In this document: positions 1 through 62,546 of the stretch, piece after piece
Numbering within the stretch: position 1 is the first letter of the stretch
How the letters are laid out: each line of letters opens with the position of its first letter
Assembly (NCBI GenBank): GCA_951406725.2
Contig: OX597814.1
Span: forward strand, 46,500,001 to 46,564,000
Direction of reading: 5' to 3'
Length of the DNA: 64,000 nt
Origin: Octopus vulgaris
Taxonomy: Eukaryota
The notes under the pieces: model-generated
Databases searched by the model: none
Told to the model about the DNA's origin: nothing
The model's input: the letters and a program-made list of their open reading frames with translations, nothing else
Program-made: the position numbers and the translations under genes

Positions 1-392
1 GTGTGGTTCAATTGATTACATCCGACGTTATAATTCAAATGCCCCAACCAACAGCGCGCCAAACTCTCACGGAAAACAAATACAGCATTTAGAAATAAAT
101 GCAGCATAATTATAATTAATTAATAAGGGTGAGAGAATTAGATACTCAATTTAATAGTATATTTATTCCACACCAGAGTGGTCTAGTGCTACGAGAAACC
201 TGGATTATTATAATATTTTATAACATATTATAATATTTTCACAAAATAAATATAAGAGAGTGGTCACTATATTGATCACTCCTAGCACCAGTTAATCCAA
301 AAGGTTTCAACCACGAAAATACATGTTCCCATGAAAGCCAGTACGACTGTTAGCTCACACGGACAGGGCAAATAAAAAATAACAAAAATACA

Positions 393-482
393 GATTATTT
401 TGGGACAATTGTTTCGCTATTAATGAATTAAATGTAATATTACTTACAATAATCCATTTGTAGCTCGTCAGCCAAGACTATC
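393..482 (-). ncRNA. Type I hammerhead ribozyme, array copy 1
   Basis: Minus strand: stem I GATAGTCTTGG, core CTGACGA, stem II GCTA...TAGC, GAAAC-AATT-GTC, stem I' CCAAAATAATC. Confidence 0.85.
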
Positions 483-925
483 TGGATGAAATCCACTCAA
501 TCACACGCCAGATTTTACCATAACGATAAATACGCGTGTGGTTCAATTGATTACATCCGACGTTATAATTCAAATGTTCCCCAACCAACAGCGCGCCAAA
601 CTCTCACGGAAAACAAATACAGCATTTAGAAATAAATGCAGCATAATTATAATTAATTACAAGGGTGAGAGATTAGATACTAATTTAATAGTATATTTAT
701 TCCACACAAAGTGGCCTAGTGCTACGAGAAACCTGGATTATTATAATATTTTATAACATATTATAATATTTTCACAAAATAAATATAAGAGAGTGGTCAC
801 TATATTGATCACTCTAGCACCAGTTAATCCAAAAGGTTTCAACCACGAAAATACATGTTTCCCATGAAAGCCAGTACGACTGTTAGCTCACACGGACAGG
901 GCAAATAAAAAATAACAAAAATACA

Positions 926-1015
926 GATTATTTTGGGACAATTGTTTCGCTATTAATGAATTAAATGTAATATTACTTACAATAATCCATTTGTAGCTCG
1001 TCAGCCAAGACTATC
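926..1015 (-). ncRNA. Type I hammerhead ribozyme, array copy 2
   Basis: Same motif as copy 1, 533 bp downstream. Confidence 0.85.
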
Positions 1016-1457
1016 TGGATGAAATCCACTCAATCACACGCCAGATTTTACCATAACGATAAATACGCGTGTGGTTCAATTGATTACATCCGACGTTATA
1101 ATTCAAATGCCCCAACCAACAGCGCGCCAAACTCTCACGGAAAACAAATACAGCATTTAGAAATAAATGCAGCATAATTATAATTAATTAATAAGGGTGA
1201 GAGAATTAGATACTAATTTAATAGTATATTTATTCCACACCAAGTGGCCTAGTGCTACTAGAAACCTGGATTATTATAATATTTTATAACATATTATAAT
1301 ATTTTCACAAAATAAATATAAGAGAGTGGTCACTATATTGATCACTCTAGCACCAGTTAATCCAAAGGTTTCAACCACGAAAATACATGTTTCCCATGAA
1401 AGCCAGTACGACTGTTAGCTCACACGGACAGGGCAAATAAAAAATAACAAAAATACA

Positions 1458-1547
1458 GATTATTTTGGGACAATTGTTTCGCTATTAATGAATTAAATGT
1501 AATATTACTTACAATAATCCATTTGTAGCTCGTCAGCCAAGACTATC
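1458..1547 (-). ncRNA. Type I hammerhead ribozyme, array copy 3
   Basis: Same motif, 532 bp after copy 2. Confidence 0.85.
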
Positions 1548-1940
1548 TGGATGAAATCCACTCAATCACACGCCAGATTTTACCATAACGATAAATACGC
1601 GTGTGGTTCAATTGATTACATCCGACGTTATAATTCAAATGCCCCAACCAACAGCGCGCCAAACTCCTCACGGAAAACAAATACAGCATTTAGAAATAAA
1701 TGCAGCATAATTATAATTAATTAATAAGGGTGAGAGAATTAGATACTAATTTAATCTCTCACCCTTATTAATTAATTATAATTATGCTGCATTTATTTCT
1801 AAATGCTGTATTTGTTTTCCGTGAGAGTTTGGCGCGCTGTTGGTTGGGGCATTTGAATTATAACGTCGGATGTATCACTGAACCACACGCGTATTTATCG
1901 TTATGGTAAAATCTGGCGTGTGATTGAGTGGATTCATCCA

Positions 1941-2031
1941 GATAGTCTTGGCTGACGAGCTACAAATGGATTATTGTAAGTAATATTACATTTAATCTCA
2001 TTAATAGCGAAACAATTGTCCCAAAATAATC
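1941..2031 (+). ncRNA. Type I hammerhead ribozyme, array copy 4 (inverted arm)
   Basis: CTGACGA 1952-1958, GCTA/TAGC stem II, GAAAC 2009-2013, GTC 2018-2020, TTGG/CCAA stem I. Confidence 0.85.
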
Positions 2032-2456
2032 TGTATTTTGTTATTTTTTATTTGCCCTGTCCGTGTGAGCTAACAGTCGTACTGGCTTTCATGGGAAACA
2101 TGTATTTTCGTGGTTGAAACCTTTTTGGATTAACTGGTGCTAGAGTGATCAATATAGTGACCACTCTCTTATATTTATTTTGTGAAAATATTATAATAAT
2201 CCAGGTTTCTCCAGTAGCACTAGGCCACTTGGTGTGGAATAAATATACTATTAAATTAGTATCTAATTCTCTCACCCTTATTAATTAATTATAATTATGC
2301 CGCATTATTTCTAAATGCTGTATTTGTTTTCCGTGAGAGTTTGGCGCGCTGTTGGTTGGGGCATTTGGAATTATAACGTCGGATGTAATCAATTGAACCA
2401 CACGCGTATTTATCGTTATGGTAAAATCTGGCGTGTGATTGAGTGGATTTCATCCA

Positions 2457-2546
2457 GATAGTCTTGGCTGACGAGCTACAAATGGATTATTGTAAGTAAT
2501 ATTACATTTAATTCATTAATAGCGAAACAATTGTCCCAAAATAATC
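2457..2546 (+). ncRNA. Type I hammerhead ribozyme, array copy 5 (inverted arm)
   Basis: Full motif intact; the next copy (2911-2986) has lost the CTGACGA core by deletion. Confidence 0.85.
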
Positions 2547-3261
2547 TGTATTTTTGTTATTTTTTATTTGCCCTGTCCGTGTGAGCTAACAGTCGTACTG
2601 GCTTTCATGGGAAACATGTATTTTCGTGGTTGAAACCTTTTGGATTAACTGGTTAGAGTGATCAATATAGTGACCACTTTATATTTATTTTGAAATATTA
2701 TAATATGTTATAAAATATTATAATAATCCAGGTTTCTCAAAGCGATTAAATTAGTATCTAATTCTCTCAAATTATAATTATGCTGCATTATTATTTGTTT
2801 TCCGTGAGAGTTTGGTGCGCTGTTGGTTGGGGCATTTGAATTATGTAACGTCGGATGTATCAATAACCACACGCGTATTTATAGTTATGGTTAATTGAGT
2901 GGATCATCCAGATAGTCTTACAAATGGATTATTGTAAGTAATATTACATTTAATTCATTAATAGAAACAATTGTCCCAAAATAATCTGTATTTTTGTTAT
3001 TTTTTATTTGCCCTGTCCGTGTGAGCTAACAGTCGTACTGGCTTTCATGGGAAACATGTATTTTCGTGGTTGAAACCTTTTGGATTAACTGGTGCTAGAG
3101 TGATCAATATAGTGACCACTCTCTTATATTTATTTTGTGAAAATATTATAATATGTTATAAAATATTATAATAATCCAGGTTTCTCGTAGCACTAGGCCA
3201 CTTGGTGTGGAATAAATATACTATTAAATTAGTATCTAATTCTCTCACCCCTATTAATTAA

Positions 3262-3635
<374 letters not shown>

Positions 3636-3641
3636 ATAATC

Positions 3642-4784
3642 CTCCGTCTACGTAGGCTCTGTAGTGACGACCATGACTTTGAGACTCAGTCTCAACGTAT
3701 GGCTCACCACTTCACCCTACGTGGATACCCCCTCACCACTATCCACACCGCCCTTGCTAGAGCACGGTCCGTGGACCGTGTATCTGCTCTCTCTCCCCGA
3801 ACCCGCCCTGTAGTCTCCCGCCTCCCTTTTCCCCTCACTTACCACCCCATGACCCTACGTCTCCAACGCACCATTCTTCGAGCTTTCCGTCATCTCCAGT
3901 CCGACCCGTCCACTTCACACCTCTTCCCTAACCGACCCCTCCCCTCTTTCAAACGAGCCCACAACCTTCGGGACCTTTTGGTCCATAGCTCCTTCCCTGA
4001 CCCTACCTCCCAACCCGGCTCGTTCCCCTGCTCCCGCCCACGTTGCCGCACTTGCCCTTACATCTCCAACACCACCCGCCTCACTAGCACCCACCATCGA
4101 CCCTATCCCATCATCCACTCCTTCACCTGCACCTCCAGCAATATTATCTATTGCATCTCTTGCTCTCTCTGCAATTCCTTGTACATCGGACAAACGGGAC
4201 GCCGCTTGGCTGACCGGTTCGCGGAACACCTTCGTGACATCCACCTTGCGAACGACACACCGGTCTCACGTCATTTCCGCTCAACCGGTCACTCCTTGCA
4301 ACACCTATCTGTGTTCGGTTTGTCCTTACACAGAGGCCATCCGGATTCCCGTTTGCGCCGTGAACAGGAATTAATCTTCTCTCTTCGCTCTTATACGCCA
4401 TTTGGTCTCAACTCTCCCCCCTCCTCATCTAACCTCACCCCCCTCCTCACCTATCCTTTCTCCCCCGACCCCTACTTCTTCAGTCCTTCATCCTTTCACC
4501 CCTACTCCCCTTCCCTTCTTCCCTCTTTCTCCCTCCCTCTTCCCCTCCCTCTGCTACCTCACTCCCTCTCTCCCCTTCTCTCTCCCCCTCTCCCTCTTTC
4601 CTCCTTCATCCCCCTCATCCCCTTCCTTCTCCCCCATCCTCTCCTCTCCCCCTTCTCCTCCCCCTCTTCTTCCCCTCCCCTTCTCTCCCCTCTTCTCTCC
4701 CTCCCCCTCTTCTCCTCACTACACCACATGACTTTACACATCACATCACATATGATGTGCCATACTAATACACACACCAACTAA
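3642..4784 (+). CDS. C-terminal part of Penelope-like RT/GIY-YIG endonuclease ORF (homologous part ends ~4415, rest low complexity)
   Basis: [69 protein letters not shown] are characteristic PLE GIY-YIG motifs. Confidence 0.85.
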
Positions 4785-5008
4785 TACCTACTAATACGTA
4801 CTAATACATACTAGTACATACTAATACTTACACCAACCCTATACATACACACGTCCAGACCCCGCATACGCACTTATACTCTCTCACACACACACACACA
4901 CACACCTATACATACCAATACGTACTAATACATACTAATACATACTAATACATGCACCAACCCCATACATACGCACGTCCAGACCAATCTTACGCACTAA
5001 TACTCTCT

Positions 5009-5045
<37 letters not shown>

Positions 5046-5277
5046 ATACATACTAATACATACACCAACCCTATACATACACACATCCAGACCCCTCCCA
5101 CGCACTTTTAGCTGGTCCCTCAACCCGTTTATCAACCCTATTATCTCCCCTTATTTCGCTCTCGCGTCTCATGTTTGATCTTTGACCTCTGGCCGAAATC
5201 AGATCGCCATGTTGATTCGTTAGCTACTGCACGCATTTTTTTCTCTCCTTCTTTCTGTGTTTTTCTCTCTCTGTGTA

Positions 5278-5315
5278 TCTTTCTGTTGAAGAGCGTAGGC
5301 TCGAAACGTTAAAGA
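5278..5315 (+). ncRNA. Minimal type I hammerhead-like motif in the Penelope terminal region
   Basis: TCTTT-CTGTTGA-A-GAGC(GTAG)GCTC-GAAAC-GTT-AAAGA; stems I and II pair, palindromic AACGTT at stem III; core deviates from CUGANGA. Confidence 0.65.
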
Positions 5316-5414
5316 CTTGTTTTATTTATATTTCCTGAGCGCCATACTAATACAATTGTTCGTTTGTTTTCCACCTGCCTTCGTCTTTTGTTTATTTTCA
5401 TAAAGCTTCCCGTT

Positions 5415-6817
<1,403 letters not shown>

Positions 6818-7144
6818 CGGGGACCCTGCCACAGAGACACGAGGCAGATGGACAAACCATCAACACAAAGAAAAGGGATGGACCACGCACCACCTGCCCC
6901 AAAGCGGAGGTACGCAGATGTTGTGCGCGCCACAAACAGCCAACATGATGTTGTCGAAAGAGCAGCTGCTGAGCAACAATCTTTTTTGTGCATGGCACAA
7001 AAGATTGTACAGCAGCTGACCTGGCTTCATCAAACCCAAGCCCGCAGGTGGGACTACCCACTATATACCAGACCACCACAGCAAACAGACACAGGATGGA
7101 CACCGCCGGCAACAACGTACACCTCACCTCGATACTCCTACTGA
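6818..7144 (+). CDS. Probable C-terminal remnant of LINE ORF1
   Basis: Open frame overlapping the start of ORF2 in a different frame; YADVV and QSFL segments followed by a Q/P/T-rich tail. Mostly positional inference. Confidence 0.45.
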
Positions 7145-10092
7145 ACATCAGAGGACTGCAAACACTCAGTAACAGGACAAAGATCCCGTTCCTGAGAGAC
7201 TTTGTTGCATGCAATCAAGCCATATGCATAGCACTTACAGAAACGCACCTGAAACCGGACATAGCAGATGCGGAGTTACACATACCACAGTATGCTGTAC
7301 TACGGACCGACAGGAAAGAAAGGAGTCATGGAGGTGTTGCTATGTACATCCGTGAGGACCTCACACCCCAGGTCCTCTTGTCATACTCAAACTCGGTGTG
7401 TGACACACTAATTGTACATATTAGGCAACTTGATGTAGTTGTGTGTGCTACATATCGCCCTCCAGATGCCCCAAGCCATGTGGGCAAGTTTGAAGACTGC
7501 CTTATAAAAATAGAAGAAATTCTAACCACATTAGAACAACACATAGGTGTGCTTCTTATGGGAGACTTCAATCTGCCCAATGTCAGATGGCCCGAGGGCC
7601 TTTCTCTCCCAGGAATGACAAGATGTGAACGAGGACAGGCGAGGTCCCTCCTGAACCTCACCAACACCCTGTACATGGAGCAGGTAATACTCCAACCAAC
7701 CAGGGCAGGTAACACACTGGATCTCTGCTTCACAAATGACATGGATCTCATCCATAATGTGAAAGTGACACCGACACTACTCTCGGATCACAACATGATA
7801 GAGCTGACCATGTACGGGCCAAAAGAGAGCACGGACATGCAGCCTACAAGAAACCCTCAAAATCTTTCCAGCTTGAACTACCATAAGGCAAACTGGAAAC
7901 AAATTGAGAAAGAGATCCTCAAACAAAACTGGCCTAAATGTCTCTCCTCGCCAGACATCGACGTGAAACTTCAACAATTCATGTCTGTAATGCAAGCCAT
8001 ATGCTACAAATGTGTCCCAGAGAGAAAGGCCACTGTACACAAGAACAAAATCCCCAGAGAGAGGAAAATTTTAATGAGACGGCGTACGAAATTTTCAAAT
8101 CGCCTAAACAAACAGATTGAAAGCAGTGAAAAGTCCCGCCTAAAAATAAAACTGTTGGAAATCGAAAAATGTCTGCAACTCTCCCATGAAAAAGAAAGAG
8201 CAGACAAAGAAGCCTGGGCTATAGAAAACATAAAATCTAACCCCAGAGCTTTCTACAGGTATGCCAAAGAAACAGCTACAGTGCACTGTAGAATAGGGCC
8301 ACTCCTCGAAAAGGATGGCACACTTACAGGAAAACCAATGAGGGTAAGTGAAATACTGAATGAGCAATTCAAGAGTGTTTTCACTCCACCCCTTGGGCAT
8401 CTCCAAATCACCAATCCAACTGACTTTTTTACCACTGCAGATATAAAATCAGAGGCGGCGACGATAGATTACATCGATATAAAGGAAGACGATGTAACCA
8501 AGGCTATAGATGAAATGAAAACAGACTCAGCTACTGGCCCCGATGGATTCCCGGCAATCCTCCTAAAAGCATGTAAGAGAGTCCTAGCAAGACCACTGCA
8601 GTTCCTCTTTCAGAGCTTCCTTGCAGCTGGCAAACTTCCAGGAAAACTGAAGGAAGGTAAAATATGCCCCATTCATAAAGGAGGTAGCAGAGCGGAAGCC
8701 AAGAACTATAGACCTATCTCTCTGACCTCACACATCAGCAAGGTCATGGAACGAATAGTCAGAAGGAAGCTGATCACCTTCCTTGAAGAGAATGACTTGC
8801 TGCCCGACACCCAACATGGTTTCCGACCAGGGAGAAGCTGTTTAACTCAGCTCCTACAACACTATGACTGGGTGCTGAAACGGCTGCTCAACCACTCAAA
8901 TGTGGAAGTGATATATCTCGACTTTGCAAAGGCCTTTGATAAAGTCGATCATGGAATGATATGTCACAAACTGCGTGATCTCAACATAGTTGGAAAACTG
9001 GGAGAATGGCTTCATGACTTTCTGAAGGATAGAAGTCAGGTGGTAGTAGCCAATGGGGCCACCTCCATTAACACACAAATAGTGAGCGGTGTTCCGCAGG
9101 GCACTGTTCTGGGACCACTACTGTTCATAATGGCCCTCTCAGACATGCCCTCAGCCACGCAGAGAGCCACGATCACAAGTTATGCAGATGATACAAAAGT
9201 TTCACAGGCAATACAGAACCCTGAGGACACTAAACACCTGCAATGTGAGCTGGACGAAATATACAAGTGGGCTGAAAAGAATAGCATGCAGTTCAATGCT
9301 GGAAAGTTTCAAGCTTTATACTATCAGCATGCAAAACTGAATGCAATACCCAATGAATACACTGGACCCGGAGAGATTGCAATCCCAGAGGCACAATCAG
9401 TGCGTGACCTGGGTATTCACATGAGTGATGACGCGACCTTTCATGTACATGTTGCTAAACTGACAATGAAATGTAGACGGCTGGCTGGATGGATTCTTAG
9501 AACCTTTAGAACAAGAGAACAAGAAACCATGATGGTCCTCTGGAAGACACTTGTCCTAAGCCACTTTGACTATTGCTCTCAGCTATGGTCACCATCCAGT
9601 GTCAAGTTGATCACAGAACTTGAGGCGATCCAACGAAGCTACACAAAGAAGATAGCCTCTATGCAGAATGTAAGCTACTGGGAAAGACTCAAGAGATTAA
9701 AATTATATTCCCTGGAGCGTAGGCGGGAAAGATATGCCATAATATACATCTGGAAGATCCTGGAGGGAAGTGTCCTGAACTTTGGCATCGAGAGTTACGC
9801 AAATGCCAGAACTGGGCGCCACTGCGTGGTGCCTAGGACTCCAAACCTGCCATCAAGATGTAGGACAAGATACTGTGATAGCCTGGGCTTCCGAGGCCCA
9901 CAGCTCTTCAATATCCTCCCGAAGAACCTGAGAGACCTGCATGGGGTGGATACAGATGTCTTTAAAATGAAGCTGGATCTCTTCCTGTCAGGTGTCCCAG
10001 ATGAACCAACTTCACGGCAGGAGGGGCAGATGAGGGCAGCTGCATCGAACTCTCTCATGCACCAAATAGCAGTTGCTAGAAAGCCTCCATGA
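6988..10092 (+). CDS. LINE ORF2: apurinic-like endonuclease + reverse transcriptase (1034 aa, uninterrupted)
   Basis: APE motifs LNIRGL, ALTETHL, YRPP, MGDFNLP, TLDL, SDH; RT motifs [44 protein letters not shown]. First ATG at 7096. Confidence 0.95.
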
Positions 10093-16485: not shown

Positions 16486-16569
16486 CTTGGGCTGATGACG
16501 GAAATATTGATAGGAGTATGTATTTCTAGCATCTCTATATCCAACTAATCCAGAAACGGCGTTCTCAAG
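16486..16569 (+). ncRNA. Solo type I hammerhead ribozyme with long stem II
   Basis: CTTGGG-CTGATGA-CGGA...TCCA-GAAAC-GGC-GTT-CTCAAG; stem I CTTGGG/CTCAAG pairs; lies in a ~350-bp block between TA repeats. Confidence 0.7.

Positions 16570-24315: not shown

Positions 24316-62546
<38,231 letters not shown>

Follow-up and report, generated by a model that had tools for sequence, protein, structure and literature searches.

A two-armed hammerhead ribozyme repeat in the genome of Octopus vulgaris with the insertion anatomy of Penelope-like elements

A 64,000-nucleotide stretch of Octopus vulgaris DNA (GenBank assembly GCA_951406725.2, contig OX597814.1, positions 46,500,001 to 46,564,000; the whole stretch is referred to as the window) opens with an array of 533-bp repeat units, each of which carries a hammerhead motif predicted, from its sequence, to act as a self-cleaving RNA. 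Rather than being a simple tandem repeat, the array consists of two head-to-head arms inside a (TA)n tract. This two-armed anatomy, which was overlooked in an earlier reading of the DNA letters (the sequence-only reading), is the most informative feature of the array and makes it very likely that the repeats were inserted by a two-site mechanism in the manner of Penelope-like elements (PLEs). The explanation favoured here, which is considered reasonably probable as a whole, is that of a young, non-coding hammerhead repeat belonging to the retrozymes without long terminal repeats (non-LTR retrozymes), inserted in two-armed form into (TA)n and copied by a PLE, probably from a circular monomer. 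In this respect the young, dispersed, non-coding, retrozyme-like type I hammerhead family proposed in the sequence-only reading is supported.

Anatomy of the array

The repeat units are 532–535 bp long, with mutual identities of 94–100% and a GC content of 33%. Their longest frames starting with ATG comprise 54 amino acids on the hammerhead strand and 60 amino acids on the opposite strand, which confirms the earlier description of a 533-bp tandem repeat without a credible coding frame. Tandem Repeats Finder, which is limited to periods of up to 500, therefore did not report the array. The ribozyme lies on the minus strand in the copies at 1–1755 and on the plus strand in the copies at 1749–3266, the inversion being located at 1749–1755 (Table 1). 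The left arm extends approximately 1.9 kb to the left of the window, where it contains four further intact hammerhead cores (seven in all), and its outer end abuts a long (TA)n tract at a position denoted site A (unit position ∼160; G000:C1:46498101), unit position 1 being defined as the first base 3′ of the predicted cut. In the right arm, which terminates at a different position, site B, the unit at 2536–2975 shows 13 small deletions and only 4 substitutions; these deletions may represent consensus or sequencing errors in a long palindrome.

Family size, fixed ends and pairing of the arms

A search of the genome (2.8 Gb in 227 contigs) reveals 2,124 exact uncut cut-site junctions and 834 exact site B–(TA)n junctions, so that the repeats form a dispersed family, as the sequence-only reading had anticipated. 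Site A junctions number 228 when counted on the forward strand with a narrow pattern; this count was used since the reverse-strand pattern for A ends counts sites twice (483). In all, 97 loci were mapped. A first sample consists of 37 loci chosen by similarity, and is hence length-biased, while the second comprises 60 of the 72 listed B junctions of contig C1, chosen by their end alone. Because two members of the second sample (L116 and L118) repeat the flank of a third (L064), they were dropped, leaving 58 independent loci.

The outer ends of the arms are located either ∼160 bases (A) or 290 bases (B) after the cut, with an A–B spacing of 130 nt. In the second sample, 38 of the 58 B-anchored loci contain an inverted arm of at least 19 nt, which runs off the fetched DNA in two cases. 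Of the 36 opposite arms that could be resolved, 35 end at site A and one ends ∼18 nt beyond A, while B is not the end point of any. An independent choice of ends, with equal chance for each, would yield such A+B pairing with a probability of 3e-11. The two-armed loci of the first sample show the same combination in 22 of 25 cases, with one shortened end in the other 3. Single damaged units resembling that at 2536–2975 of the window are also found in other two-armed loci.

At their inner sides the arms are far less regular. Arm lengths grade smoothly between 0.1 and 7.5 units, with the longest arms reaching up to 13 units (L029), and the inner ends fall at every phase of the unit. The inner ends of the two arms are joined, often via a few shared bases: an overlap of 5 nt or more is observed at 15 of 55 junctions, versus 1.1% in simulations, with BLAST-derived overlaps possibly being slightly inflated. 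The arrays directly abut (TA)n and display no LTR-type layout, for which primer-binding sites and polypurine tracts were not searched. Target-site duplications are not definable inside (TA)n.

A sister family, found beside one of the loci (L047) and approximately 65% identical to the present family, shows a comparable organization. It is older, with copies that are 81–93% identical to the query copy (1,141 candidates), and its ends are homologous to A and B, the A–B extension being ∼110 nt. Eight clear A+B loci are present among the 24 distinct loci fetched, the remainder consisting of two complex loci and others that are single-armed or unresolved. In addition, a hairpin just before site A is preserved in the sister family via compensatory changes (4 of 7 pairs).

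Penelope-like elements and the mode of insertion

Published work on PLEs describes inverted 5′ copies, a tail of 30–40 bp at one end and (TA)n targets (PMC8557442, PMC3846280). For the PLE protein of Anolis, cutting and extension of both target strands has been reported, together with initiation at two internal positions of the RNA, which delimit the tail, and a predicted dimeric state (PMC11167929). The fixed A and B ends, the inverted arms and the (TA)n target of the octopus family have the same anatomy, and insertion by a PLE-type two-site mechanism is accordingly regarded as very likely. Mobilisation by a Penelope-like enzyme, which the sequence-only reading had assumed on general grounds, thus gains its support from the insertion anatomy.

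For the PLE remnant next to the array, denoted PLE1, a link with the array is not supported, contrary to what the sequence-only reading had implied from its position. PLE1 elements (L146–L181) have open frames of more than 1,000 amino acids, a partial-tandem structure and a minimal hammerhead-like motif beginning with UUGAAGA; in the neighbouring copy such a minimal motif lies at ∼5285–5312. Across 25 loci they show a single fixed 3′ end in (TA)n, no inverted copy of this end was detected in 12 long loci, and no sequence similarity was found between the 533-bp unit and either PLE1 or the second family described below. The neighbouring PLE1 copy is a separate insertion into the shared (TA)n tract and is not part of the array. 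A U-rich likeness following the PLE1 ribozyme, which might have pointed to PLE1 as a partner, was matched by 32 of 200 shuffles, and this candidate is not supported. PLE1 is itself very young and abundant, with 149 scored copies at 98–100% among 19,461 candidates.

The second family, PLE2 (L183–L228), is young, abundant and autonomous, with a frame of 781 amino acids encoding reverse transcriptase (RT) and GIY-YIG domains; no hammerhead was found in it. PLE2 elements possess short and long 3′ ends, ∼35 nt apart and located in (TA)n, and all 5 two-armed cases combine one short with one long end (in 46 fetched stretches, several of which overlap). By anatomy alone, PLE2 is therefore a candidate helper of the octopus repeat. 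A motif taken from the read ends of a relative had no match in the genome. A tiny insertion of the repeat family (L213:3110–3260) abuts an inverted PLE2 arm within one (TA)n tract, and nested insertions of TA-targeting elements are common.

Several observations are less easily reconciled with PLE-type insertion. Neither of the young PLE families examined shares sequence with the unit, and the A–B distance of 130 nt far exceeds the 30–40 nt of the PLE tail. In 20 of the 58 B-anchored loci no inverted arm reaching 19 nt is seen, and the two complex loci of the sister family (L121 and L135) each hold two A-ended arms.

The hammerhead motif

The hammerhead of the unit is of type I. A complete core is present at five of the six positions in the window, in agreement with the sequence-only reading, the sixth core (2975) having been lost to deletions. 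The three stems also correspond to those given earlier, except that stem I extends further: it consists of UUGG/CCAA and a second helix CAGAU/AUCUG. Stem II is long. Stem III comprises just two pairs around AAUU, inside the palindrome ACAAUUGU, which bears out the short palindromic stem III that had been noted; two copies of this palindrome can pair with a predicted energy of -7.8 kcal/mol. A single unit folds far better than its shuffled counterparts (z -6.2, with 0 of 100 shuffles as good).

In a survey of 295 copies from 71 loci, for which the core was not used in the selection, the core is intact in 273 copies. The free position N7 is occupied by C in 101, A in 174 and G in 18 of the copies. 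A U4C change in the core is seen in 12 of the 295 copies and is common to more than one locus. In an alignment of 20 motifs, which were picked by the core motif and in which core identity is thus given by construction, all 5 stem I pairs are changed on both sides between the family and its sister family. Overall, 8 of 16 pairs covary, which exceeds the value in all 500 shuffles and in all slid controls.

Not all observations favour an active ribozyme. For the isolated motif, the active fold is less stable than the predicted minimum by 5.6 kcal/mol, conservation within the family is not significantly higher in the core than in the remaining columns (1 of 12 versus 62 of 514), and the covariation of stem I draws on two or three lineages only. 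The comparison with the Rfam hammerhead models that the sequence-only reading had proposed as a check did not return the motif: no hit in the window reaches the gathering score, and no hammerhead is found among 32 hits obtained with E ≤ 5 for positions 1–6000. Hits to microRNA families in Rfam reflect the inversion and microsatellites.

Template of the arms and alternative explanations

The units within a locus are closely related. Among 139 units, substitutions amount to 0.87 when the two arms of a locus are compared, to 1.45 inside an arm and to 14.5 from locus to locus. Paired arms thus share their haplotype, and no array mixes subfamily haplotypes. In the unbiased sample none of 90 arms, with 114 crossings of the cut site, stops at unit positions 1–3 (upper bound 2.6%), and when both samples are considered no stop at the cut site occurs in 286 crossings. 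The template was therefore devoid of ribozyme-made 5′ ends, i.e., a circle or an uncut multimer. Many arms of less than unit length already span the cut junction, which likewise requires a circular or multimeric template. An apparent stopping of arms at the ribozyme cut was suggested by BLAST comparison with one unit, but a two-unit reference shows that these arms continue 7–37 nt past the cut. A slight accumulation of stops at unit positions 519–528 (5 versus 1.7, P 0.03, in one of four position intervals) is absent from the second sample.

Variants private to a locus, in the sense of being absent from the 94 sampled loci only, occur in one unit in 77 cases, in all covering units in 16 cases (7 of them in both arms) and in some units in 8 cases. 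The array-wide variants are mainly changes from A/T to G/C (13 of 16), whereas 46 of the 77 single-unit variants are changes from G/C to A/T. This pattern fits a bottleneck of one monomer at insertion. On the other hand, GC-biased conversion could equally yield the spectrum of the array-wide variants, scattered units of one array share variants in several loci (L024, L029, L030, L037, L104 and L108), and in L043 and L056 a variant is shared between the first full units of both arms. It follows from these scattered and cross-arm variants that exchange after insertion, or a mixed template, does occur. Furthermore, the purified Anolis PLE mainly uses uncut RNA, the ribozyme being dispensable in vitro (PMC11167929), and three loci that represent one flank (L064, L116 and L118) nevertheless differ by one unit. 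Taking these opposing observations into account, a circle is still considered rather probable as the template, in preference to an uncut multimer.

The alternative that follows most directly from the last points is two-site PLE priming on an uncut, linear read-through transcript, with the ribozyme acting elsewhere (e.g., in RNA release) and with later exchange homogenising the arrays. The substrate preference of the Anolis enzyme and the existence of source arrays of 13 units (L029) speak for it, an uncut multimer likewise predicts the absence of cut-site stops, and the in-register variants of L043 and L056 and the variants shared among scattered units of several arrays are also in its favour. 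Yet such sharing in register fails at L024 and L037, no array among the 139 units mixes haplotypes, and the distribution of private variants over one, all or some units (77, 16 and 8) is not what this mechanism would lead one to expect. In addition, the many cleavage-competent ribozymes of a long transcript should leave some cut 5′ ends, which are not encountered in any of the 286 crossings; this explanation is thus thought unlikely. It is also conceivable that short insertions came first and that tandem units arose later by local unequal crossing-over or slippage, as has been proposed for retrozyme minisatellites in a recent preprint (bioRxiv 10.64898/2026.07.22.740005). The varying unit number among L064, L116 and L118 and the variants common to scattered units agree with such local amplification, which is nonetheless improbable in view of the frequent occurrence of two multi-unit arms with intact fixed ends, the smooth series of arm lengths with inner ends at all phases, and the sub-unit arms that span the cut junction.

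Two further possibilities concern the nature of the units and of the inversion. The sequence-only reading had called for a search for copies attached to PLE open reading frames (ORFs), since the units might be mere terminal repeats (pLTRs) of an autonomous PLE. In Xenopus, 24 of 57 retrozyme families are described as matching Repbase elements at their ends, 21 of 22 of these elements being PLEs (bioRxiv 10.64898/2026.07.22.740005), and the octopus family was sampled in part only. Nevertheless, an arm continuing into a PLE ORF was found in none of the 97 mapped loci, which, together with the lack of similarity to either young PLE family examined, renders it very improbable that the units are pLTRs. 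Finally, an inversion may be generated artificially by the assembly of fold-back reads, and the small deletions in which the right arm of the window is rich would be in line with this. An artefact is nevertheless the least probable of the explanations considered, because symmetry is seen at only 4 of 55 junctions, and mirrored flanks at a single one of 53 loci, where they extend over 119 nt. Moreover, the arms end at two different fixed sites, and the same rule is repeated in the sister family and in an autonomous PLE.

Base changes suggestive of RNA editing

The family was also compared with sequence runs that are contigs from other individuals, and whose status as RNA is a guess. In loose ends from two of these runs, X2 and X11, plus-strand T>C changes are the only departures from the window, affecting 9 and 10 of 30 letters, respectively. 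When matches are taken at 80% likeness, run X11 contains plus-strand T>C changes at 35 places versus A>G at 4, and a run with another organism label (X18) contains 30 versus 5. The bias corresponds to P values of 8e-10 and 1e-7, respectively, to be read with the reservation that sites on one contig are non-independent. It is not compositional, because the plus strand holds more A (205) than T (150). A large, DNA-like run (X15) shows 2 changes of each kind. The edited motif has no matches in the genome.

Plus-strand T>C changes are equivalent to A>G changes on the hammerhead strand and are therefore expected from editing by ADAR. Because the fold-back of a two-armed transcript should lead to editing of both strands, the restriction of the changes to one strand suggests that the hammerhead-strand RNA itself is the substrate. 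One of the edited contigs crosses the cut junction, and the catalytic GAAA core is affected. It is thus likely that the hammerhead-strand RNA is partly A-to-I edited, with the catalytic GAAA included. A further run (X10) lacks an excess of T>C changes (2 versus 1), which does not agree with this view. Metabolic labelling with 4-thiouridine is another possible source of T>C changes, but it is unlikely to have operated across three studies. A single contig of 563 nt in run X1 closes on itself; contigs do not allow a circle to be distinguished from a tandem arrangement.

Inheritance of ADAR edits by new insertions is not supported, given that the array-wide private variants comprise 5 A>G and 5 T>C changes. 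Among the shared variants, which are unpolarised, an excess of purine transitions is found (39 versus 16). Clustered editing of transcribed repeats has been described as common in animals, and editing as such is not new.

Proposed mechanism

The observations can be combined into the following scheme. Arrays would be transcribed on the hammerhead strand, and the transcripts cut into 533-nt monomers that are closed to circles. A PLE protein, probably in the form of a dimer, would nick both (TA)n strands and prime one of the resulting DNA ends at RNA site A and its counterpart at site B, 130 nt away. In the DNA, each arm is seen to run inward from its fixed end over 0.1 to 13 units, to cross the cut site with neither scar nor stop, and to end at a variable point. 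The inner ends are joined, often via a few shared bases, by a mechanism that would complete the insertion. Part of the hammerhead-strand RNA is probably A-to-I edited, including the catalytic GAAA.

In its most explicit form, which is put forward tentatively, this scheme implies that the array is the footprint of rolling-circle reverse transcription, in which one PLE dimer copies one 533-nt circle into a pair of multimeric cDNAs, which come together head to head, while ADAR editing disables the ribozyme in some molecules. If true, it would provide genomic evidence that the ribozyme circles of animals are actual templates for transposition, as well as a general rule of one A end and one B end for PLE integration.

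Features of the window and further hammerhead motifs

The features of the array, of its surroundings and of the sister family are listed in Table 1.

Table 1. Features of the array and its neighbourhood in the window, and location of the sister family (window positions unless a locus is given).
Feature	Position	Strand	Remarks
Left arm	1..1755	-	3.3 units within the window, ∼6.9 in total
Type I hammerhead, intact core	391..484	-	C17 at 404, predicted cut after 404
Type I hammerhead, intact core	924..1017	-	C17 at 937, predicted cut after 937
Type I hammerhead, intact core	1456..1549	-	C17 at 1469, predicted cut after 1469
Head-to-head junction	1749..1755		7 bases claimed by both arms (unit positions 247 and 259)
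Right arm	1749..3266	+	∼2.9 units; outer end at unit position 290 (site B), abutting (TA)n
Type I hammerhead, intact core	1939..2033	+	C17 at 2020, predicted cut after 2020
Internal copy of site A	2122..2181	+	Hairpin with compensatory changes in the sister family, then AU-rich A-type arm end point
Type I hammerhead, intact core	2455..2548	+	C17 at 2535, predicted cut after 2535
Sixth hammerhead position, core deleted	2906..2988	+	C17 position 2975; 12-nt and 2-nt deletions
Site B	3240..3266	+	Fixed outer end of the right arm
(TA)n/(CA)n tract	3263..3635		Right-hand target
PLE1 neighbour, 5′-truncated	3639..5414	+	ORF end with CxxxxCxxC and GIY-YIG, 3′ region
Sister family	L120–L144		GUA triplet, U-U mismatch at the base of stem II
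Further diverged sister copy	L173:9505–9930		

A non-LTR retrotransposon occupies positions 6973–10092 of the window on the plus strand, with an open frame of 1039 amino acids that includes an AP-type endonuclease and RT, and with (TA)n on both sides; a fragment related to it lies to the left of the array in L021. An unrelated type I hammerhead-like motif, present as a single copy in the window, is located at 16486–16566 on the plus strand and has a CUGAUGA core, a long stem II and a GUU triplet. Another hammerhead-like motif, at 26062–26093 on the minus strand, probably stems from a different repeat. At least four further canonical type I hammerhead families, with a short and mostly palindromic stem III, are present in the flanks of the fetched loci (L029:9864–9980, L132, L041, L026, L033, L077, L100 and L117). 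The genome seems to be rich in type I hammerhead families.

Comparison with known systems

Judged by its sequence, the octopus family belongs with the non-LTR retrozymes. With the metazoan members described for coral, mussel and axolotl (PMC7229834) it has in common the non-coding, low-GC tandem units with a type I hammerhead, the thousands of copies and the strongly folded monomer. The stem III of two pairs, together with the tetraloop, is shared with the axolotl hammerhead HHR_Amex2 (PMC7229834). The octopus unit of 533 bp is longer than the 150–450 bp reported there, but the consensus lengths of vertebrate retrozyme families are given as 51–972 bp (bioRxiv 10.64898/2026.07.22.740005), so that its size is not unusual, contrary to what the sequence-only reading had held. 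Cleavage and circles have been demonstrated for the retrozymes of PMC7229834, whereas the octopus family is known here from sequence. A further difference is that most octopus insertions consist of two arms in inverted orientation, which end at two fixed sites in a (TA)n target; the words 'inverted' and 'orientation' do not occur in the main text of PMC7229834. Inverted two-armed retrozyme insertions or fixed start sites are described neither there nor in the main text of bioRxiv 10.64898/2026.07.22.740005, supplements aside, and none of the papers listed in literature searches, most subscription journals aside, mentions either feature in its title or in the opening of its abstract.

The vertebrate non-LTR retrozymes of that preprint belong to the same class, and in both cases the genomic setting includes young PLEs. 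They are tied to PLEs by co-occurrence and by similarity to pLTRs, in contrast to the octopus family, for which the link is the insertion anatomy and no matching pLTR was found in the two PLE families examined. The entry of retrozymes into the genome is stated as an open question in both reports, with PLEs as the favoured helpers and circular templates as a hypothesis (PMC7229834, bioRxiv 10.64898/2026.07.22.740005), and the later steps of PLE integration are likewise described as unresolved (PMC11167929, PMC8557442). In this context the octopus family is of interest because it is young, has more than 800 datable ends and displays the PLE insertion signature in a countable form. Its two start sites are mapped and accompanied by a conserved hairpin, its ends pair according to a rule, its target is defined and the frequency of stops at the cut site is bounded, which together make the question of retrozyme mobilisation directly testable. 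The strand-specific A-to-G clusters are, in addition, a candidate for the mechanism presumed to keep the ribozyme inactive in the circles of animals (PMC7229834).

The closest similarities in insertion anatomy are with the endonuclease-containing (EN+) PLEs, including Penelope/Poseidon, Neptune and Naiad (PMC8557442, PMC3846280, PMC11167929). As described for these elements, a 5′-truncated copy is inverted head to head and an extension is present at one end only; the use of targets that are AT-rich or consist of (TA)n, the two start sites within the RNA and the microhomology at the junctions are shared as well. Unlike the EN+ PLEs, the octopus unit contains no ORF, and its extension measures ∼130 nt (∼110 nt in the sister family) instead of 30–40 nt. 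Both arms of the octopus insertions, moreover, can be long multimers, and the pairing of one end of each type is nearly strict in the counted sample.

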